NCBI GenBank assembly: GCA_016219325.1
Contig: JACRNH010000014.1
Coordinates: 132 to 64,131, forward strand
Source: Candidatus Collierbacteria bacterium
GTDB lineage: Bacteria; Patescibacteriota; Microgenomatia; UBA1400; JACPES01
DNA length: 64,000 bases
Direction of reading: 5' to 3'
The notes beneath the pieces are model-generated. The model worked only from the letters and a program-made list of their open reading frames with translations, was not told the origin of the DNA and made no database searches. Made by a program: the position numbers and the translations under genes. Shown here piece by piece: positions 271 to 58,415 of the stretch; position 1 is the first letter of the stretch, and every line of letters starts with the position of its first letter.

Positions 271-1902
271 ATGGAAAATTGGAATTGGACAAAACTTCTT
301 TTAATTTTTAGTTTTCTAATCTTTTTAGGATCGCTGCTTTTACGCCAAGAAACGGCAATAACGCAGGATTTGGGAAGACATTTAAGATTGGGAGAAATGA
401 TTACCGCCGATGGAGAAGCCGGAAAGTGCGCTCTTTATTCAAATTGCCTGACGTACACTTATCCTGATTATCCGTTTATAAATCATCACTGGGGATCGGA
501 AGTAATTTTCTATCTTGTCCATAAATGGTCAGGCTTTTCCGGAATTATTGTTTTTAAAACAATTATTCTGGGATTGACGTTTATAGTTACACTTCTCCAT
601 TCGCTAGAACTCAATAAAGGCCCGGCCTTTTTAAAAAGGCCGGGCCTTTTATGGCTAGCAATTGCTGTTAGTCTTGTTTTTTTCTCCGTCCAAATGATGG
701 CGGACAGGCTAACTACCCGCCCGGAAATTTTTGGATATTTCTTGTTTTCTATCTTATTCTGGATGCTGAATTCATCGTTTCCAAAACGTCTTTTATCATT
801 GTTTCTTGTTTTCTGCTCATTGCTCATTATTCTGTGGGTGAATTTACACATTTCGTTTGTGTTTGGATTGATACTTATCTGGATTTGGGCAGGGAGCCAA
901 TTATTAGCGTCATTGCGAGGGAGCGACAGCGACCGCGGCAATCTCGGAGATCGCCACGCCCCGCCGCGTCGAACGCGGCTGGGGCTCGCGATGACGGCAA
1001 CGGCGGCGGCGTCTACTATGGCAACTATTTTCAATCCTTCCGGACTCCGCGGAACGCTGATGCCGCTATCAATACTCAAAGACTACGGCTACACCATTGT
1101 GGAAAATATGAATCCTTTTTTCTTGACAGCATTTAAACCACAACCAGAATACTGGATATACATTATATTGTTGATAACGACTATTTTCTTATTTCTTTTT
1201 TCCTCCGCCAAAAAAAATCCTTTTCACCTGCTAACCTTTTTAACTTTTAGCCTTTTCCCTCTTATTGCCGTCCGCCACCTGCCATTTTTTGCGCTTGTAA
1301 TTTCACCTATCTTGGCCCCGTTACTCTTTAGCGTCTTAAAAGGCCCGGCCTTGCTTAGCAAGGCCGGGCCTTATGATGCCCATATTCCGATACTAACTAT
1401 TGGCTTCTTATTATTGACAGCATTTACCAATCCCATTCCTCTTGCCTACGCCAAACTCCCGCCGATAAATCTATCCACAGATTCCCGCCACGATCAGGCC
1501 ATCGAGTTTGTTAAACAAAATAATTTTCAGGGACCGATGTGGAATAACTACGACATCGGCAGTTTCCTGGAATGGGCGATTCCGGAACACAAGACTTTCG
1601 TTGACGGAAGACCTGAAGCATTCCCTGTTGGGTTTTTCAAAAAGACGTATATTCCGATGCAGGAATCGCAGAAAAAGTGGGACGAGGTAACCGCGGCAAA
1701 CGATATCCAGTGGGTGTTTGCGGCTCTGACAGACGCCACTCCGTGGTTTACCAAATGGTGGCAGATGATCCAAAATCATCAGGGTTGGAAGATTGTATAC
1801 ATTGATAATTACAGCACAATTCTGATCCGGACCAACGGCAAAAACAATTTAATTGAACCACAGGGAAAAGCTCGATTATTAAAAACCCTCAATTCGGATT
1901 GA
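271..1902 (+). CDS. Polytopic integral membrane protein (hypothetical). Carries two in-frame 33-34-nt palindromic inserts and a GC-rich insert.
   Basis: 543-aa ORF with many hydrophobic helices. Hairpin inserts at 616-649 and 1340-1372 and a GC-rich patch at about 897-1020 all lie in frame. Confidence 0.6.
   Translation: MENWNWTKLLLIFSFLIFLGSLLLRQETAITQDLGRHLRLGEMITADGEAGKCALYSNCLTYTYPDYPFINHHWGSEVIFYLVHKWSGFSGIIVFKTIILGLTFIVTLLHSLELNKGPAFLKRPGLLWLAIAVSLVFFSVQMMADRLTTRPEIFGYFLFSILFWMLNSSFPKRLLSLFLVFCSLLIILWVNLHISFVFGLILIWIWAGSQLLASLRGSDSDRGNLGDRHAPPRRTRLGLAMTATAAASTMATIFNPSGLRGTLMPLSILKDYGYTIVENMNPFFLTAFKPQPEYWIYIILLITTIFLFLFSSAKKNPFHLLTFLTFSLFPLIAVRHLPFFALVISPILAPLLFSVLKGPALLSKAGPYDAHIPILTIGFLLLTAFTNPIPLAYAKLPPINLSTDSRHDQAIEFVKQNNFQGPMWNNYDIGSFLEWAIPEHKTFVDGRPEAFPVGFFKKTYIPMQESQKKWDEVTAANDIQWVFAALTDATPWFTKWWQMIQNHQGWKIVYIDNYSTILIRTNGKNNLIEPQGKARLLKTLNSD
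616..649. repeat. Intragenic palindromic element, copy 1 (AAAGGCCCGGCCTTT-ttaa-AAAGGCCGGGCCTTT)
   Basis: Perfect 15-bp inverted repeat with a 4-nt spacer. Translated in-frame as KGPAFLKRPGLL. Confidence 0.8.
1340..1372. repeat. Intragenic palindromic element, copy 2 (AAGGCCCGGCCTTGC-tta-GCAAGGCCGGGCCTT)
   Basis: Perfect 15-bp stem with a 3-nt loop. 33 nt, in-frame (KGPALLSKAGP). Confidence 0.8.
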
Positions 1903-2651: not shown

Positions 2652-3305
2652 ATGAATAGACTTCTGAAGACGATCGGTTTTATTCTTCTGCTTGTTGTAA
2701 TCTCCGCCGGCGGAATATTTATCCTGACCCGGAAACCGAAAGCGGTTGAAGGGATAGAAACATTTCCCAGTCAGGGCCGCAATCACGTCCCTGCCGGAAC
2801 TATCGGAGAATATAACAGCAATCCGCCTACTTCGGGACCGCACTACACCCAATGGGAAAAACCGGGAATATACAATAAGGTTCTTCCGGACGGAAACTTA
2901 ATTCACTCGTTGGAACACGGATATGTGATAATTTCGTACGATTGTACGAAATTATCAAACTCAAAACTCAAAACTCAAAGTTCAAAATTTTGGAAGGTTT
3001 TTGCGCATGAAACGGAAGAGATCCATGAAGAACCTCCGGCCACAGATAGCGCTGATGTCAAACCAGATAATATTTCCGGATGGAAAGATAGTCCTGATTG
3101 CCAAAAATTGGTTGATCAGATAAAACAAGTTACCAAGAAAACCGGCATGGACAGGCTGATCGTAGTTCCCAGGCCAAATCTTGATGTCCCAATAGCTATG
3201 ACGTCCTGGACAAAATTGTTGAAACTGAACGACGTCAACGAAGACAAAATTATTAATTTCGTTAAAGAATTCCGGAACAAAGGTCCTGAAAAAACCATGG
3301 AATGA
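2652..3305 (+). CDS. DUF3105 family protein, membrane-anchored
   Basis: PPTSGPH and HSLEHGYVIISY motifs with an N-terminal TM. Contains a heptamer tandem repeat at 2957-2988. Confidence 0.6.
   Translation: MNRLLKTIGFILLLVVISAGGIFILTRKPKAVEGIETFPSQGRNHVPAGTIGEYNSNPPTSGPHYTQWEKPGIYNKVLPDGNLIHSLEHGYVIISYDCTKLSNSKLKTQSSKFWKVFAHETEEIHEEPPATDSADVKPDNISGWKDSPDCQKLVDQIKQVTKKTGMDRLIVVPRPNLDVPIAMTSWTKLLKLNDVNEDKIINFVKEFRNKGPEKTME
2957..2988 (+). repeat. Heptanucleotide tandem repeat (AAACTCA x3 plus a variant) inside a CDS
   Basis: caaactcaaaactcaaaactcaaagttcaaaa, encoding SNSKLKTQSSKF. Confidence 0.75.
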
Positions 3306-3671: not shown

Positions 3672-5771
3672 TTAGACCTCAAGCTTGACTTTTTTTAAGG
3701 CCATGGCGTTAATTACCACAATCACTGAAGACAGACTCATCAAAAACGCCCCTATTCCCGGTGTAAGTTGAAAGCCAAGCGGGATAAATAAGCCTGCAGC
3801 GGCCGGAATCGCCAAAACGTTATAGCCGGTAGCCCACAGTAAGTTTTCTATCATTTTCCGGTAGACTTTTCTGGAAAGGATAACCAGCCTGGCCACGTCC
3901 TCCGGATTGCTGCGGGTTAAAACTACGTCTCCTGATTCAACCGCGACGTCAGTCCCGGCCCCAATCGCCACTCCGGCATTGGCCTGTTTCAAGGCCGGGG
4001 CGTCATTAACGCCGTCTCCCACCATAATGACTATCTCGCCTTTATCCTGAAGGCTCTTAACATATTTATATTTATCGGCCGGTAAGACTTCAGCAAAAAC
4101 TGTATCCATCTCCAGCTCTTTACCCACGTCTTCTGCCACTTGGTGGTTATCTCCGGTAACCATGGCTGCTTTGACCCCTAATCGGTGCAAGCTTTTTATG
4201 GCAGATATTGATTCGGGCTTGATTTGATCGGACAAAGAGATTGTCCCCAAAATTTGTTTCCCGTCGGCAACAAATACTGTCGTTCCCCCACCGTCTTCTC
4301 CATTTACCGAAAGCCCTTTTTCTTTCATTAATCTGAAATTGCCAATCGTATATTTAATTTTCCCAACAGTGCCCTCTATTCCTTTCCCAGCCAAATTTTT
4401 AAAATTGACAACGGACTGAAGAGATACGCCTTTTTGTTTGGCATATTTGACGATTGACAGGCCGATAACGTGAGAGGAATGGACTTCTAGGGAGGCTGCT
4501 ATTTCAATTAAGGCCTGGCCTTGCAAAGCAAGGCCAGGCCTTTTAAGACTTACGATTTTAGTCACCCCGAACTCCCCCTTCGTCAATGTTCCGGTCTTGT
4601 CAAAAATCACATAAGTAGCTTTTTTAATTACCTCTAATTTTCCTAAATCTTTCAGAAAAACGCCGTTTTTAACGGCTAAAGTTGTGGCAATAGTTGAGAC
4701 AGTTGGGATAGCCAAGCCTAAAGCATGCGGACAGGCAATTACCAAAACCGTAATCGCCAAAGTCATGGCAAAAACAAACGGCTGTCCGGCTACCGCCGAC
4801 CAAAAGAACAAAGAAAATAATCCGACCGTCAAGGCGGTAAGGGTCAAAATTCCGGCGGCCTTGTCGGCGATCTTTTGGGCGGTAGGCTTGGTTTTTTGGG
4901 CTTGAGCGATAAGGTTTTTAATCTGGCCTATAGTTGAATTTTCTCCGACTTTATCCAACTTGACTTCCACCGAACCATCAAGACAAATAGCTCCGGCTAT
5001 CGCTCTATCGCCGGTTTTTTTGGATACCGGCCGTGATTCGCCGCTGATATGAGATTCATTAAAGTTGACCGCGCCCTTAATGATTATTCCGTCGGCCGGG
5101 ACTTTCTCCCCAGGCTTGACCAATACTACGTCCCCCTCTTTCAACTCTTCAATATCTATATCTTCTGTTAATTCTGAATTCTGAATTCTGAATTCTGAAT
5201 TAATTATGCGGTGGGCCTGTTTCGGCAACAACTTTGCCACTTCTTTCAGAGCATCGCCGGCTGCAGTAGAAGATTTAGCTTCTAAGAAATGGCCGAATAA
5301 CAACACCCAAATCAGAGTAGATATTTCCAGATAAAATTCGGTTTTAATCGCCGGAATAAATGTTGAAGCGGCGGAAAATAAGTACCCTGAACCGACGGCC
5401 AATGATACTAAAGTCATCATCCCGTATTTCTTAGCCATCCATTCATGGCGGGCATGCTGGAAGAAAATCAGGCTGAAGTAGAAAATGACGGTGGCAGCTG
5501 CAAATTCTAAATAGTTCCGACCGGCGAAATCCGGCATTCCCAGAAACCTAATACCCAGTTTGCTGGTTATCAACAACGGAACCAATAACAAAGTGACGAT
5601 TAAAAATCGTCTCAAAAAATCTCCGGCGGCTTGCGGCCCGGCCATCATGGCGGCGTGATCATGAGATTCATTAGCCTCATGCTGCGGAACTAAATCCATT
5701 CCCCCGCACTTGGGACATTTTCCGGGATGATCCTGTTTAATCTCGGGGTGCATGGGACATGTATAAATCAT
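3672..5771 (-). CDS. copB: Heavy-metal translocating P1B-type ATPase with CPH motif (CopB-like) and an N-terminal CPMHPE...CPKCGM metal-binding domain
   Basis: DKTGTLT, GDGVNDAPAL and CPH (VIACPHALGLAIP) motifs are present. The N-terminus reads TCPMHPEI...GKCPKCGM. Eight TM-like segments. Confidence 0.9.
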   Translation of the reverse strand: MIYTCPMHPEIKQDHPGKCPKCGGMDLVPQHEANESHDHAAMMAGPQAAGDFLRRFLIVTLLLVPLLITSKLGIRFLGMPDFAGRNYLEFAAATVIFYFSLIFFQHARHEWMAKKYGMMTLVSLAVGSGYLFSAASTFIPAIKTEFYLEISTLIWVLLFGHFLEAKSSTAAGDALKEVAKLLPKQAHRIINSEFRIQNSELTEDIDIEELKEGDVVLVKPGEKVPADGIIIKGAVNFNESHISGESRPVSKKTGDRAIAGAICLDGSVEVKLDKVGENSTIGQIKNLIAQAQKTKPTAQKIADKAAGILTLTALTVGLFSLFFWSAVAGQPFVFAMTLAITVLVIACPHALGLAIPTVSTIATTLAVKNGVFLKDLGKLEVIKKATYVIFDKTGTLTKGEFGVTKIVSLKRPGLALQGQALIEIAASLEVHSSHVIGLSIVKYAKQKGVSLQSVVNFKNLAGKGIEGTVGKIKYTIGNFRLMKEKGLSVNGEDGGGTTVFVADGKQILGTISLSDQIKPESISAIKSLHRLGVKAAMVTGDNHQVAEDVGKELEMDTVFAEVLPADKYKYVKSLQDKGEIVIMVGDGVNDAPALKQANAGVAIGAGTDVAVESGDVVLTRSNPEDVARLVILSRKVYRKMIENLLWATGYNVLAIPAAAGLFIPLGFQLTPGIGAFLMSLSSVIVVINAMALKKVKLEV
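4510..4542. repeat. Intragenic palindromic element, copy 3 (AAGGCCTGGCCTTGC-aaa-GCAAGGCCAGGCCTT) within copB
   Basis: Perfect 15-bp stem with a 3-nt loop. 33 nt, in frame (LKRPGLALQGQAL on the minus strand). Confidence 0.8.
5171..5203 (-). repeat. Heptanucleotide tandem repeat (GAATTCT x about 4.4) in-frame within copB
   Basis: attctgaattctgaattctgaattctgaatt on the plus strand; the gene strand encodes INSEFRIQNSE. Confidence 0.85.
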
Positions 5772-14537: not shown

Positions 14538-14570
14538 CAACAAGGCCCTTTGGCAGAAGGGCCTTGGTTG
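14538..14570. terminator. Bidirectional intrinsic terminator hairpin between convergent genes
   Basis: caaggccctt-tggcag-aagggccttg, a 10-bp stem, sits between the + gene ending at 14511 and the - gene ending at 14578. Confidence 0.5.
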
Positions 14571-14577
14571 ATTAAGT

Positions 14578-16011
14578 TTATTCCGCAAACGTTCCGAATG
14601 AATTCTCAATTAAAGGACCGTAAACTGACCACTTGGAGGCCGGGGCCCGGCCGATCATCATAAATGCCCCCTGACCGTCAGGTCTAAACAATAATGACCA
14701 AAACTCTGTAACATTAATTTTATCTTTAGGCAAATAATGTTCAATTTCCATGGAAATCCGGCGGAACCCTTTCCACGAACTCTCTTTTGGCTCTTTGATA
14801 AACTTCAACTGTTGATAATCCTCCGATTTCGACAAATAATCTTTTATCGCAGTCGTATATACCTCTTCATTCTCTCCCAACGGATTCCATGAGTTTTTAT
14901 CTACAAAAAAGAAGGCCTCTTTCGGCTTCATAAATCCGACTTCTTCCTTATCTTTGGCGTCTTCAACTTTCCAGTCTTTCGGGTAGCGCATTAACCAACC
15001 GTAATTGCTAACGTATGGTTTGTCCGTCAACAATGACTGATCAAACGGCTGTCCTCTCTGGCCGGAACGGGTAACTTTGGCGCTAAACTGCAATTTTCCT
15101 CCAGCAGCCGCCAGAATCATCAGCCCAATTATCCCCGCCAGTAAAACAGTCCATATTTTCTTCTTTTTTCCGGCCGGCTTTTTGACAGGTTTGCCAACCT
15201 CTTTATTCTTAATTAAAAATGAGGCTACTGCAGCAATTAGCCCTGTCCCAAAAACCCAAATACCGATCTTCTGGCCTATATCTATCGCCCTTTCTAATAA
15301 AATTTTAATTATCGGAAACAAAAACGGGGGAATAAAATTAAATGAAGGCAATACCGCTGAAACCTGTCCAGGGGCTGATTTAACGGCCAGAGTCAATACT
15401 GCCCCAGACACAATCAACATAACACCGCTCCCCCGCAATTTTCCTTTCAGTGTTTTTCCCAACCAAAAATGCAGAACCAGCAACAATCCTGATAATGTCA
15501 ATGCCGCTCCCCAAACTATTGGCAAAAAAGAAATTATATTTTTTATCTGTAAAAAAGTTTTCTTTAATTCTGCTCCAGATTCCGGCTTCCCCGACATTTG
15601 GCCTAAAAGATTTGGCAAATCAGTTTTTTCAGATAATTGAGACAACGGCGGTTTTTGGAATAGCTGTTTCGGCAGACCAGATTTAGAAACCGGAGCATAA
15701 AAAAACAAATCTGTATCTTTCCCAACAAAAAAACCTTCCAGTCTGGTTAAATTGGTTTCAACAACGTCTTGGAAAAAATCCGGCGTTAAACCGTTAATCA
15801 TTTGAAGGGCCATAGTATTGCCCCCAGCCGACTTTTTAGACTCCAGACTGATTTGATTATAAATTTCAGTATTCTTGAGGGTCTCAATCCAAAAATCAGC
15901 CTTTAACAATCTAAACCTGATAATGGTTAACAGGGAAAACAATAAAAACAGAACAAAAAACAAATCTCCCGTTACCCACCTGAAAAAAAATCTAAAGAAA
16001 TTTTTCACCAA
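14578..16011 (-). CDS. Large membrane protein (hypothetical)
   Basis: 477 aa with multiple TM segments and a KKPAGKKKK linker. Confidence 0.55.
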   Translation of the reverse strand: MVKNFFRFFFRWVTGDLFFVLFLLFSLLTIIRFRLLKADFWIETLKNTEIYNQISLESKKSAGGNTMALQMINGLTPDFFQDVVETNLTRLEGFFVGKDTDLFFYAPVSKSGLPKQLFQKPPLSQLSEKTDLPNLLGQMSGKPESGAELKKTFLQIKNIISFLPIVWGAALTLSGLLLVLHFWLGKTLKGKLRGSGVMLIVSGAVLTLAVKSAPGQVSAVLPSFNFIPPFLFPIIKILLERAIDIGQKIGIWVFGTGLIAAVASFLIKNKEVGKPVKKPAGKKKKIWTVLLAGIIGLMILAAAGGKLQFSAKVTRSGQRGQPFDQSLLTDKPYVSNYGWLMRYPKDWKVEDAKDKEEVGFMKPKEAFFFVDKNSWNPLGENEEVYTTAIKDYLSKSEDYQQLKFIKEPKESSWKGFRRISMEIEHYLPKDKINVTEFWSLLFRPDGQGAFMMIGRAPASKWSVYGPLIENSFGTFAE

Positions 16012-16086: not shown

Positions 16087-16830
16087 ATGGAAATAAAAAT
16101 ATTAAGTTTGAATATTGAAGGCGATAAACATCTGCCGCAGGTAATTAAATTAGTTAAACAGGAGAATCCGGACATTGTTTGTTTGCAGGAAGTATTTGAG
16201 GAAGATTTTCATTTATTGCACCGCCAATTTAATATGCATGGGATATTTATGCCCACGATCTGGATCGACTTTCCGGGGGTCCCGGGATTCAACAAAAGCG
16301 GCCCTTTTGGAGTAGTTTTGCTTAACAAGTTAGCTGGAGAATTCGGGGGAGACTATTATTTTAAGCGCCGGAAACCGGAGCTGCCACTGTATAAAGGCAA
16401 ACCAAATGCCGGAAACAGATGTTTAGTTTGGCAAAAAACCGACAACGGCCTGACTATTGCCACCACTCATTTTACCTGGTCAAAAAATGGACAGACCACG
16501 GAGAAACAAAAAAGAGAGTTGAGTAGATTAATTAAGTTATTAGCTAAATTAAAACCGGATGTTTTATGCGGCGATTTCAATGCTCCCCGCGATCAAGAGA
16601 TTTGGTCGGAAATTTCCAAAAAACTAACCGATAATATTCCATCTGAAGCCAAAACCACCCTAGACCAAAATCTCCATTATTCCCATGGAGCAAAACTTGT
16701 CGTAGACGGATTCTTTACCAATCCAAGAGGCAATTTGGCCATCAAGTCAATCCGGCTGATTGGCGGAGTCAGCGACCATTTGGCAATTTCTGTTATAATG
16801 CATAGTATACAAAACCCTTTTGATAGCTGA
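16087..16830 (+). CDS. Endonuclease/exonuclease/phosphatase (EEP) family protein
   Basis: LSLNIEG, VCLQEV, GDFNAPRD and SDHLAI motifs. Confidence 0.75.
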   Translation: MEIKILSLNIEGDKHLPQVIKLVKQENPDIVCLQEVFEEDFHLLHRQFNMHGIFMPTIWIDFPGVPGFNKSGPFGVVLLNKLAGEFGGDYYFKRRKPELPLYKGKPNAGNRCLVWQKTDNGLTIATTHFTWSKNGQTTEKQKRELSRLIKLLAKLKPDVLCGDFNAPRDQEIWSEISKKLTDNIPSEAKTTLDQNLHYSHGAKLVVDGFFTNPRGNLAIKSIRLIGGVSDHLAISVIMHSIQNPFDS

Positions 16831-55749: not shown

Positions 55750-57546
55750 TCAGTCTTTTCGCACCAATTGTTTTAAACGGGCTGCCAGGTGGGACAAGGC
55801 CTGTGGCGGAAGCTTCCCGTCTTTGAGCTGGTTCCTGACCAATTCAGCCTCCAGATCGCGTAAAATCAAGCCTAATTCGCTTTTGGCTTCTTCCGAATCT
55901 TCGCCTTTTAACGGCTGAATTGCGGCCTCATCAAACAGCCCGATTAGTTCTGGCGGCAGCGATTGCCGGAAAATTTTAAAATCTCCGTTTTGAAGTTTAA
56001 TAAACTCTTTCAACAGCTCCATCAGTTTCCTCCGGCCAACCGGCTTCACCCAGTTTAAATCAAAATTCTCCGGCAATGGAAGCTTAAACTGAATTAATAG
56101 CCCCAATAAATAATGGCTCAAAATTTCCGCTCTGCTCATGGCGCTTTCATTACCAGCAGGAGCAACTAAGGATGGAGAAACGTGATTTTGTTTCCAGGCT
56201 GACATTTGGCGCCTGACGGCTTCATCCCTGACTCCCAATCTTTTCGCCAGAATACTCACCCAATGATCCTGTTCAATCGCGTTGCTTATTTCGGACAGCA
56301 ACGGCACCAAAACATCTCCTGCCTGACGTTTGGCCTCGGCTGTATCTTTTCCGAATTTTTCCAAAGTACTTTCGATAATCACCCCATAGGCATTTTTAGA
56401 CTTTTCAACCGATTCTCTCCATTTAGAAGGAGATGATTTGGCCAGTTCATCAGGGTCTTTTTCACTTTCCGGCAAAACTACCGCCCGCGAAGACAAGCTA
56501 TGATGCTCTAAAATCGGCAAGCTGCGGATTAGAGCTTCCTGGCCGGCTGAATCGGAGTCCAGGCAAACAACAACTTTTCTGCCGTAACGGCGGACCAATT
56601 TCACCTGGCCCGAAGTCAATGCCGTCCCTTTCACCGCAACTACATTTTTGATTCCGGCCTGCCAGGAGCTGATACAGTCAAATTCCCCTTCCACTAAAAC
56701 AGCCTCGCCTTTTTTGCGGATATCCTCATGATTTTCAAAAATTCCGAACAGATTTTTTGATTTGCGATAAACCGCGGTTTCCGGTGAATTAATATATTTG
56801 GCTTCTTTAATTTCCGGATCGAGCAAACGGCCGGCAAATCCTAAGATTTGCCCGCGGACGTCCCGCAAAGGAAACATCACCCGGCCGCGGAAACGGTCAT
56901 AGTAAGAATTCTGAATTCTGAATTCTGAATTCTGAATGGCGGAAGATCTGGCTTGTTTGTTTTTATTCAGTATTCGGTATTCAGTATTCGGTATTCTTTT
57001 TATTGCCAAGCCAGATTGCTCAATGTGTTCCGGCAGATAACCCTTTTTGGTTAAAAACTTAAACAGATTATCCCATTGGTTTGGAGAATAACCAATACAA
57101 AACGTCTCAATCGCAGATTTGGTGATATAGCGTGATTTTAAATATTCCCGGGCTTTTCCCCCGGCTTTATGTTTAGTTAAAATATAATGATAGAACTCCG
57201 CCGCCAAATGATTAATTTCAAAAATCTGTTTTTCAATTTGCTGCAACCGGTCGTCAACCGCCCGCCTTTCCAATTTAACTCCGGTTTTTTCGGCTAAAAA
57301 TTCCAGCGCTTCGACGAAGGTCATGCCGTCGTGCTTTTCCAAAAAAGTAAACACGTCGCCAGCCGCGCCGCAGCCGAAGCACTTAAAAATTCCCATTTCC
57401 GGGGAAACGGTAAAGCTGGGGGTTTTTTCAGAATGGAACGGACATAGGCCTAAAAATCGCCGGCCGCGCTGTTTCAAGGCAACTTTTTCGCCGATTATTT
57501 GCGCAATATCTACCCGGGATTTTATCTCCGCTACCTGATCGGACAT
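55750..57546 (-). CDS. dnaG: DNA primase DnaG with a repeat-encoded insertion in the linker
   Basis: Zinc-ribbon CPFHSEKTPSF...CFGCG and TOPRIM VLVEGEFDCIS motifs. Two heptamer arrays at 56907-56996 encode NTEYRIL...NSEFRIQNS. Confidence 0.9.
   Translation of the reverse strand: MSDQVAEIKSRVDIAQIIGEKVALKQRGRRFLGLCPFHSEKTPSFTVSPEMGIFKCFGCGAAGDVFTFLEKHDGMTFVEALEFLAEKTGVKLERRAVDDRLQQIEKQIFEINHLAAEFYHYILTKHKAGGKAREYLKSRYITKSAIETFCIGYSPNQWDNLFKFLTKKGYLPEHIEQSGLAIKRIPNTEYRILNKNKQARSSAIQNSEFRIQNSYYDRFRGRVMFPLRDVRGQILGFAGRLLDPEIKEAKYINSPETAVYRKSKNLFGIFENHEDIRKKGEAVLVEGEFDCISSWQAGIKNVVAVKGTALTSGQVKLVRRYGRKVVVCLDSDSAGQEALIRSLPILEHHSLSSRAVVLPESEKDPDELAKSSPSKWRESVEKSKNAYGVIIESTLEKFGKDTAEAKRQAGDVLVPLLSEISNAIEQDHWVSILAKRLGVRDEAVRRQMSAWKQNHVSPSLVAPAGNESAMSRAEILSHYLLGLLIQFKLPLPENFDLNWVKPVGRRKLMELLKEFIKLQNGDFKIFRQSLPPELIGLFDEAAIQPLKGEDSEEAKSELGLILRDLEAELVRNQLKDGKLPPQALSHLAARLKQLVRKD
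56907..56937 (-). repeat. Heptanucleotide tandem repeat (GAATTCT x about 4.4) in-frame within dnaG
   Basis: gaattctgaattctgaattctgaattctgaat, identical to the array in copB. Confidence 0.85.
56965..56996 (-). repeat. Heptanucleotide tandem repeat (ATTC[A/G]GT x about 4.5) in-frame within dnaG
   Basis: attcagtattcggtattcagtattcggtattc. The gene strand encodes NTEYRILN. Confidence 0.8.
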
Positions 57547-58329: not shown

Positions 58330-58415
58330 GGAGGAGTGTGCCGAATGGTAAGGCACCGCTCTCGAAAAGCGGCGGGCGCAAGCCCTTGCAGGTTCGATTC
58401 CTGTCTCCTCCGCCA
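58330..58415 (+). tRNA. tRNA-Ser(CGA), class II with a long variable arm
   Basis: GGAGGAG/CTCCTCC acceptor stem, 3-bp D-stem, CUCGAAA anticodon loop, GGGC-GCAA-GCCC variable arm, TTCGATT T-loop, and an encoded CCA. Confidence 0.85.

Follow-up and report, generated by a model that had tools for sequence, protein, structure and literature searches.

A short palindromic repeat lying in frame in genes of Collierbacteria and other Patescibacteria is probably a dispersed element constrained as a hairpin

The genomes of Patescibacteria, the candidate phyla radiation (CPR), are tiny, gene-dense and usually called repeat-poor. We analyzed a stretch of 64,000 nucleotides (nt) from a Candidatus Collierbacteria bacterium (assembly GCA_016219325.1, contig JACRNH010000014.1, positions 132 to 64,131; hereafter the window), which belongs to the Microgenomates group of Patescibacteria. 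The window carries three copies of a GC-rich hairpin inside two protein-coding genes. We consider it probable that these hairpins belong to a dispersed, non-autonomous palindromic element, which occurs in Collierbacteria and other Patescibacteria and is akin to repetitive extragenic palindromic (REP) sequences and Rickettsia palindromic elements (RPEs), and that it is tolerated in loops of the host proteins and constrained as a hairpin.

An earlier reading of the letters alone (the original prediction) had described two hairpins with 15-bp stems in a membrane-protein gene and a third copy in copB. The first two were confirmed as perfect palindromes, with stems slightly longer than claimed, and the third was located in a gene for a Cu P-type ATPase (Table 1). 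They are indeed GC-rich islands, with stems of 53-69% GC in a region of ~43% GC. Copies 1 and 2 share the arms AAGGCCCGGCCTT and AAGGCCGGGCCTT, separated by TTTAAA (palindromic core TTTTTAAAAA) and by GCTTAGC, respectively, and in copy 3 the arms AAGGCCTGGCCTT and AAGGCCAGGCCTT flank GCAAAGC. In frame, copy 1 translates as NKGPAFLKRPGLL (as KGPAFLKRPGLL, residues 116-127 of the membrane protein) and copy 2 as LKGPALLSKAGPY (as KGPALLSKAGPY, residues 357-368), and the minus-strand reading of copy 3 in the Cu-ATPase is KRPGLALQGQAL, i.e. (K)RPGLALQGQAL. The tryptic peptides predicted across the inserts are RPGLLWLAIAVSLVFFSVQMMADR, and GPALLSK followed by AGPYDAHIPILTIGF. Predicted RNA folding energies of the hairpins range from -29 to -38 kcal/mol (z = -5 to -8), with -29.4 kcal/mol (z -5.1) for copy 1 and -38.1 kcal/mol (z -8.3) for copy 2.

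Within the window, the 13-nt arm AAGGCCSGGCCTT occurs six times with at most one mismatch; shuffled sequences give an expectation of 0.10, and none of 100 shuffles reached six. When two mismatches were allowed, 13 occurrences (the six true arms included) were found vs 7.5 expected, and hence there is no excess of degenerate arms beyond chance. A scan of the 64 kb for perfect hairpins of at least 9 pairs returned, as GC-rich ones, only the three copies and a stem-loop at 14541-14566.

Table 1. Hairpin copies, host genes and other repeats in the window
Feature	Position	Strand	Location	Description
Hairpin copy 1	616-649		inside ORF 271-1902 (+)	AAAGGCCCGGCCTTTTTAAAAAGGCCGGGCCTTT, perfect palindrome, 17 pairs, centre fully paired on paper
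Hairpin copy 2	1340-1372		inside ORF 271-1902 (+)	AAGGCCCGGCCTTGCTTAGCAAGGCCGGGCCTT, perfect palindrome, 16 pairs, 1-nt centre
Hairpin copy 3	4510-4542		inside ORF 3672-5771 (-)	AAGGCCTGGCCTTGCAAAGCAAGGCCAGGCCTT, 15 pairs, 3-nt loop
Host gene 1	271-1902	+		543-aa polytopic membrane protein; identical to NCBI HZB78_03310 (Candidatus Collierbacteria metagenome-assembled genome)
Host gene 2	3672-5771	-		699-aa copper-translocating P-type ATPase (CopA/CopB type); TIGR01511, E = 6.7e-159
Composite palindromic insert	908-996		in ORF 271-1902, loop ~213-247	~89 nt, very GC-rich, terminal inverted repeat CGTCATTGCGAG / CTCGCGATGACG
Heptamer array	5170-5201		in Cu-ATPase gene	GAATTCT/AATTCTG x4.6 (100% matches)
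Heptamer array	56906-56937		in ORF 55750-57546	GAATTCT/AATTCTG x4.6 (100% matches)
Heptamer array	56964-56996			TATTCAG x4.7
Heptamer array	2957-2987			AAACTCA x4.4
Stem-loop	14541-14566		between + gene (stop ~14510) and convergent ORF 14578-16011	CAAGGCCCTTTGGCAGAAGGGCCTTG
ORF, open reading frame; aa, amino acids.

The three hairpins are members of a family with the architecture AAGGCCNGGCCTT, short spacer, AAGGCCN'GGCCTT. Two 13-nt arms AAGGCCNGGCCTT, each palindromic around N, are inverted around a 6-10-nt, mostly self-complementary spacer, and the whole unit (two arms plus spacer) spans 32-36 nt; AAGGTCNGACCTT is a less frequent form of the arm. We searched 596 Gb of GTDB genomes, at one genome per species, with the pattern AAGGCCNGGCCTT-N(0-10)-AAGGCCNGGCCTT, which detects intact arms only. 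This search returned 65 stretches, 36 of them from Patescibacteria metagenome-assembled genomes (MAGs); by our estimate ~0.02 would be found in random sequence. Fifteen copies reside in Collierbacteria JACPES01 and five in one Daviesbacteria MAG. A metagenome scan added at least 120 loci, mostly from groundwater and from few data sets, the sample being dominated by a few aquifers. No match was found when viral contigs were searched with the two-arm pattern.

Copies are found well beyond one gene. In JACPES01, 14 of the 15 lie inside long ORFs, whose products were assigned by Pfam to an RluA-type pseudouridine synthase, the Cu-ATPase, a NUDIX hydrolase, the large subunit of ribonucleotide reductase (RNR), YfhO, GatB, GT4 and GT2 glycosyltransferases, FolD and FemAB. 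In other genomes the hosts include ArgRS, PheRS-beta, SufS (two copies) and SufC. In total, at least 68 host homology clusters carry the element. This breadth, together with orthologues in which the site is empty (see below), supports the proposal that the hairpins were inserted in frame into ORFs in the manner of RPEs.

For a census we retained 184 distinct copies from loci of <50% GC, after removal of duplicates and of one satellite contig, Ga0194118_10043387 (L154). The latter, which contains TTTAGGG telomere-like repeats and a 16/37/53-nt GGCCTTGGGAACACAA array, is a chance match and probably eukaryotic. Coding status was assigned by an ORF heuristic and not by a gene finder, and many of the copies are related by descent. 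Long ORFs contain 142 of the 184 copies (77%), and 77.4% of 34-nt windows drawn at random from these loci. Judged from these sequences, placement shows no preference for or against genes and is proportional to their share of the genome.

Each of the three reading frames is represented (pooled arm frames 131, 97 and 56), and the same DNA yields KG[PLQR]A[LF], xRPGL or KA[RGW]P depending on the frame. For instance, one and the same 34-mer, AAGGCCCGGCCTTGCCGCGGCAAGGCCGGGCCTT, gives KGPALPRQGRAL in one ORF and [ILK]RPGLAAARPGL in four others. Since all frames are read, there is no "element peptide". Stop codons are absent from all six frames of the core GGCCNGGCC, and every frame encodes peptide rich in Gly, Pro, Ala, Arg and Leu. 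One frame of the spacer TTTTTAAAAA contains TAA, and where this spacer occurs in coding copies, reading is confined to the remaining two frames. Seventeen identical units were found in non-homologous ORFs, an observation to which we give reduced weight because palindromic spacers allow few variants (only 256 for 8 nt). For the same reason, non-palindromic spacers are better evidence of a shared family: a sub-family with the spacer CGRNTACAA is read in three different frames.

Copies were also recovered outside CPR. The Bdellovibrionales MAG CAZFIH01 (L017, L021, L044 and L059) has five spacerless two-arm copies (26 nt), mostly intergenic. The low-GC MAG CAYSOR01, labelled Gammaproteobacteria (L007, L048 and L053), has three copies inside long ORFs, one of them with the same spacer as a Gottesmanbacteria copy (KARPWGTLRPGL). 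These cases may represent mislabelled bins or horizontal spread.

Alignment of orthologues, which had been suggested as a check of lineage specificity, showed the inserts to be lineage-specific. The membrane protein was aligned with 15 close (48-73% identity) and 4 distant (~33%) homologues. All 4 distant homologues lack the three insert segments, and the close ones have variable segments at the same loop sites. For the Cu-ATPase, six syntenic loci (L001-L006) were compared, in which the orthologues are 81-87% identical to the window protein. The hairpin site is empty in L003 and L006 (82-87% amino acid identity), where the protein reads ...SSK↓ILQIAASLE (arrows denote the insertion point throughout), and relative to them the window ATPase has a net gain of 10 residues. 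The L001 ATPase has 12 additional residues, which correspond exactly to its 36-nt palindrome inserted at AA↓A. A 33-nt unit occupies this site in the window, L181 and L015, and in L002 a tandem heptamer, ACCATCA x4.7, lies there instead (L002 ~16330-16365). Further orthologues with empty sites were found in a larger sample of loci.

One clean pair was available at the nucleotide level, L140 and L121, which are 85% identical over 112 nt. They align without gaps once 30 nt (GGCC...GGCC) are taken out of ...GGTTATGATAA↓TTTTTAAA... (GATAA↓TTTTT). No target-site duplication was observed at orthologous filled and empty sites, this pair included. These comparisons of sequence show precise insertion of the unit, with a net gain of 30, 33 or 36 nt and without target-site duplication.

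In the membrane-protein gene, the unit of copy 1 (loop site 1) is shared by five orthologues that differ in N/N' and one loop base. At the loop of copy 2, orthologues hold variants with different self-complementary spacers, or another palindrome family. Among orthologues with an identity of 60% or more, none lacks a palindromic insert at any of the three loop sites. As far as the alignments reveal it, inserts at these loops were either conserved or replaced wholesale, and decayed intermediates are few.

Pairing stops at AAGG...CCTT in 115 of the 142 coding copies, and the bases beyond it are not random. Because the symmetry of a mixed-strand flank profile is partly automatic, the profile was redone on the sense strand. 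At 110 representative sites T was present at -6 (76%) and -4 (75%), and A at -1 (60%), +4 (62%) and +6 (59%). Outward profiles of 176 distinct flank pairs gave ~60% A at positions 4 and 6 vs a background of 28%, and a symmetric, AT-rich consensus D-W-N-A-R-A-Y-T. The pattern was not seen beside CCTT sites outside the family, and judged by eye it recurs among sites of all three reading frames. The empty site in L121 (5508-5619) already shows the consensus, which argues for a target preference rather than for additional element sequence. These flanks suggest a palindromic target, roughly RTYTNWW-AA↓TT-WWNARAY, with insertion between AA and TT. REP- or RPE-type tags were not detected near the unit ends: CGTC occurred within 8 nt in 4 of 181 copies (4.3 expected), GTAG in 3 (3.1 expected) and CTAC in 1 (3.8 expected).

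The family is conserved as a hairpin, a property that the original prediction had not included. Across the 184 copies, N and N' are complementary in 171, identical in 11 and otherwise in 2. Among 111 distinct units, N and N' form U-A in 38, C-G in 32, A-U in 23 and G-C in 6, and are unpaired in 12. The covariation score of N/N' was 0.236 vs 0.074 in shuffles (0 of 500 reached it), and it collapsed when the partner column was slid. No internal stem mismatch was found in 126 of the 142 coding copies.

The orthologues at loop site 1 provide an unbiased test, since they were found by protein similarity and not by the hairpin pattern. The five are 69-74% identical in nucleotides and 52-57% at third codon positions, and the unit lies at the same nucleotide position in each. 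N is C, C, A, T and A, and N' is G, G, T, A and T; besides these, one loop base and one flanking T differ. Thus 2 of the 32 non-N positions are variable vs 49% gene-wide (P = 2e-7), and 1 of 11 third codon positions vs 77% (P = 4e-6). Where N falls, the encoded residue is P, Q or L. Since this residue varies, the third positions are frozen and N' compensates, the constraint is on a nucleic-acid hairpin and not on a peptide. By this comparison of sequences, the hairpin proves more conserved than the synonymous sites of its host gene, which are saturated.

Other orthologues behave in the same way. N is different in roughly half of the diverged pairs in which both members have the unit, and N' changes with it in 100 of 102. 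Arm identity in such pairs was discarded as evidence, because both members had to match the arm pattern. In the distant orthologues L002 and L005, the variant arm AAGGTCNGACCTT preserves both the within-arm symmetry and the pairing between arms, and L005 has two further compensated pairs relative to L002. Spacers change fast between orthologues and yet stay self-complementary; loop triplets are found flipped (GCAAAGC vs GCTTTGC). Sense-strand stem mismatches comprise 3 G-U vs 5 A-C, without a G-U excess, although these numbers are too few to be informative; RNA and DNA roles are therefore not distinguished.

The host proteins indicate how such insertions could be accommodated. Searches of the 543-aa membrane protein against Pfam and NCBIfam gave zero matches. 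An AlphaFold model built with 20 homologues as input had a pTM (predicted template modelling score) of 0.80, and Foldseek matched it to DPY19, STT3, AglB, PglB and ArnT, with E values down to 8.5e-8. The modelled fold is that of GT-C glycosyltransferases. The three internal segments of lowest confidence coincide with the three inserts: residues 117-122 (hairpin 1), 220-233 (the 89-nt insert) and 362-369 (hairpin 2). In all of them the per-residue confidence (pLDDT) is <50, and all are inter-helix, the first lying between helices 74-111 and 126-144. Alignment of the ATPase with the solved structure of CopA (7r0g) puts the insert in a short loop with which the N domain begins ("PLNG-----DERE"). 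In these models and alignments, the inserts occupy low-confidence inter-helix or inter-domain loops.

The AAGGCC hairpin is not the only in-frame insert. The composite insert at 908-996, translated as SLRGSDSDRGNLGDRHAPPRRTRLGLAMT, has relatives at the same site (site 2) in L005 and L015 and at other loci in L116 and L158, and in the protein P0009 the same peptide occurs at loop site 1. Its internal sub-hairpin has compensated differences between orthologues. It is a separate family with the same behaviour as the AAGGCC hairpin. At site 2, L099 has yet another palindromic insert. At site 3, where the window has the AAGGCC hairpin, L006 (~1080-1125), L099 and L015 carry a different palindrome family, AAGTTTCGC...GCGAAACTT. 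A second kind of insert consists of perfect heptamer arrays of ~32 nt, in frame inside genes and similar in length to the hairpin.

The original prediction had also linked the family to an intergenic terminator by an AAGGCC core. That hexamer is present in the stem-loop at 14541-14566 and is all that the two have in common: its arms, CAAGGCCCTT...AAGGGCCTTG, are a different sequence between convergent genes, and we rejected it as a family member. It is plausible that this stem-loop is a bidirectional terminator.

Some further observations concern the distribution of the copies. The three in the window all fall within its first 4.6 kb; elsewhere, six hairpins lie in 21.5 kb of L002, and in JACPES01 three pairs are <4.2 kb apart. 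Local hopping or regional tolerance could give rise to such clustering. The neighbourhood is one of metal and redox genes, with the Cu-ATPase in the window and DsbA-like, DUF3105 and Suf genes nearby in syntenic loci. The sole Rfam match at the gathering threshold in the window is a tRNA gene (58330-58412).

In-frame palindromic repeats are already known in bacteria: RPEs, intragenic REPs, the Coxiella QMITE and intragenic ERIC sequences. RPEs (Ogata et al. 2000) measure ~100-150 bp and encode a conserved peptide in one frame per family (PMC10969869), and they have a CGTC tag at one end (PMC3733652). As far as these sources describe RPEs, the CPR family is like them a dispersed palindromic family of a reduced-genome bacterium, found in frame in unrelated metabolic and housekeeping genes, translated as fold-compatible extra loops, and present or absent between related genomes. 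The likeness assumed in the original prediction has its limits, however. The CPR unit is 30-36 nt, three to five times smaller than RPEs as so described, and it is a perfect hairpin, read in three frames, tagless, from a different phylum and near-identical at orthologous sites.

REPs have an unpaired GTAG or CGTC tag at one end and in most cases a mismatch or bulge, and they lie mainly outside genes, downstream of ORFs (PMC3733652, PMC3116915), although occasional intragenic copies are known (PMC3733652). The groups in which a survey identified GTAG repeats were Proteobacteria, Cyanobacteria, Chloroflexi and the PVC superphylum, and none of them is a CPR lineage (PMC3733652). REPINs, which pair two inverted units, can persist vertically over the long term (bioRxiv 10.1101/2021.07.10.451892). 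Like REPs and REPINs, the CPR family consists of 20-40-nt GC-rich stem-loops, with two inverted units around a spacer, no target duplication, sub-families with compensatory stem changes and a REPIN-like vertical persistence. Unlike them, its units are tagless, perfect palindromes and intragenic at the random rate.

Miniature transposable elements with inverted repeats (MITEs) inserted in frame are exemplified by QMITE (PMC5896051) and by intragenic ERIC/RU (PMC2759123; reviewed in PMC10969869), which are likewise non-autonomous repeats inside ORFs that act as translational fusions. MITEs, however, are 50-500 bp long, with terminal inverted repeats and target duplications, whereas the CPR unit is a single 30-36-nt palindrome without duplication. 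GC-rich palindromes also occur in Volvox mitochondria (PMC2670323), and the mitochondrial coding palindromes of Nematomorpha reach 284 bp and are gene-specific (PMC6649704). Organelle palindromes resemble the present family in that short GC-rich hairpins spread in an AT-rich compact genome and are sometimes coding and translated; the CPR units differ in residing in free bacterial genomes and in having other sequences, and those of Nematomorpha are long and not dispersed. The GC clusters of yeast mitochondria, including those in var1, are mobile GC-rich palindromes. What is distinct here is the small size, the tagless perfect palindrome, the use of all frames, the random intragenic rate and the CPR host. 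A full-text literature search did not find such elements described in CPR genomes.

We favor the view that a REP/RPE-like element of this kind would be inserted in trans by a hairpin-recognizing enzyme, by analogy with REP/REPIN sequences and the RAYT transposases (REP-associated tyrosine transposases, of the IS200/IS605 HUH type). Copies that add a multiple of three nucleotides and fall in surface or inter-helix loops would be tolerated, and would simply be translated as a loop of 10-12 residues. We infer translation through the hairpin because the frames are intact and the flanking residues conserved. Perfect pairing may be kept by selection, by arm-to-arm correction or by both, and long-term conservation would reflect either continued recognition by the mobilizing enzyme or a role of the hairpin at the level of the host.

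Several points weigh against this view. A tblastn search with an IS200 TnpA sequence, a weak test that covered 1.34 Mb of loci and no whole genome, found nothing better than E = 0.7. Conservation at orthologous sites is unexpected of inert selfish DNA and may indicate a host function; hairpin conservation fits long vertical persistence of the REPIN type and a host function equally. Identical units in different genes could partly be coincidence. As the search required exact arms, decayed copies are under-counted and arm invariance is partly a product of the search. The kinship of many copies and the heuristic coding calls also count here. The target preference rests mainly on the flank profile, because there is only one clean empty/filled pair at the nucleotide level, and translation through the hairpin is deduced from intact frames.

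The most serious alternative, which we regard as rather unlikely on balance, is that the hairpin is a domesticated cis-element: whatever its origin, selection would now retain it because it serves the host as a sequence-specific stem. In mRNA it could act as a signal for pausing, processing or stability, or be bound by a dimeric dsRNA-binding enzyme (e.g. RNase III); in ssDNA or a cruciform, a dimeric protein could bind it. Because this concerns maintenance and not origin, it overlaps with the element explanation. It would account for a hairpin far more conserved than the host's synonymous sites while the residue at N varies, for the covariation of N and N', and for the absence of decayed copies in the window. 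The GGTC/GACC arm variant, in which four coordinated changes keep both symmetries, fits recognition of a palindromic duplex by a dimer, and membrane-gene orthologues of at least 60% identity all have a palindromic insert at each of the three sites. However, the same sites in close orthologues are empty or hold unrelated inserts (a heptamer array, other palindromes), and hence no particular site needs the AAGGCC hairpin. The hosts are unrelated housekeeping genes without common regulation, and placement follows the coding fraction at random. Mismatches without a sense-strand G-U bias (GT 3 vs AC/CA 5) do not favor mRNA over DNA, and there are no Rfam family matches; with the Rfam 15 covariance models nothing significant was found over the three hairpins at E <= 1. 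The original prediction had noted a resemblance to terminators, and the stems are very stable and GC-rich, with TTTT directly after copy 1. Intragenic intrinsic (Rho-independent) terminators or attenuators that truncate transcription are nevertheless highly improbable: none of the three window copies was called by a terminator scan (at least 5 T in 8 bases), the T-tract being missing, copies lie mid-gene in the essential RNR, GatB and ArgRS with conserved in-frame sequence downstream, and the 77% intragenic share is the one expected at random, whereas terminators should be concentrated downstream of genes. Some intergenic members elsewhere do have terminator-like A-run and T-run flanks. In five of them (L033 5710-5742, L094 839-871, L127 6459-6491, L143 9295-9327 and L165 6674-6706) an A-run lies upstream and TTTT(G)A downstream, often followed by TTTGAT, so that they resemble bidirectional intrinsic terminators built on the same hairpin.

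Local production of the palindromes, by fold-back priming, hairpin-capped break repair or quasi-palindrome template switching, is largely refuted as their origin, and we rate it as very improbable. The perfect palindromes, the lack of target duplication, and the differing but self-complementary spacers with flipped triplets are what it would produce, and template switching, which in the work of Ripley and Lovett reportedly perfects quasi-palindromes, may help to maintain pairing. The same 13-mer arms, however, occur at more than 100 sites that are unrelated to one another, and the arms are unrelated to the flanking host sequence; non-palindromic spacers are common to several sites, and the flank consensus is already there in an empty site. 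That the inserts are selected as peptides, with a functional motif such as KGPAL...KAGPY, has hardly any probability left, even though they are Gly/Pro-rich, loop-like and recur in many proteins. The frame data refute it, the same DNA giving unrelated peptides in three frames; in addition, the residue at N varies (P/Q/L) with frozen third codon positions, and 23% of the copies are intergenic. Nothing specific speaks for an assembly or sequencing artefact, although chimeric reads can in principle yield palindromes, and we consider its probability negligible: the same elements occupy the same sites in independent JGI, ENA and NCBI assemblies from different locations, and this agreement refutes it.

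A bolder form of the element explanation, which we put forward tentatively and hold to be possible rather than probable, is that these are the smallest known mobile elements colonizing coding sequence: 30-36-nt, REPIN-like vertical replicators in CPR, whose hairpin is recognized by an enzyme or host factor and whose core GGCCNGGCC was selected as stop-free and loop-coding in six frames. If so, being stop-free and loop-coding is what would allow repeats to be housed in the essential genes of a gene-dense, ~1-Mb genome, and near-invariance at orthologous sites would mean active maintenance or a host function, not mere tolerance.

The findings imply that selfish or structural DNA can persist almost without intergenic space by being frame-agnostic and loop-coding. 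The inserts enlarge and diversify CPR proteins at their loops; they can also mislead alignment, orthology assignment and structure prediction, and such strong hairpins may affect sequencing and assembly. Compensatory nucleotide conservation points to a hairpin-recognizing activity in organisms that cannot yet be grown alone, and the 26-base pattern offers a handle for tracing it by phylogenetic profiling. With other palindromes and heptamer arrays found in the same loops, in-frame insertion of repeats may be a general way in which protein length evolves in this lineage.

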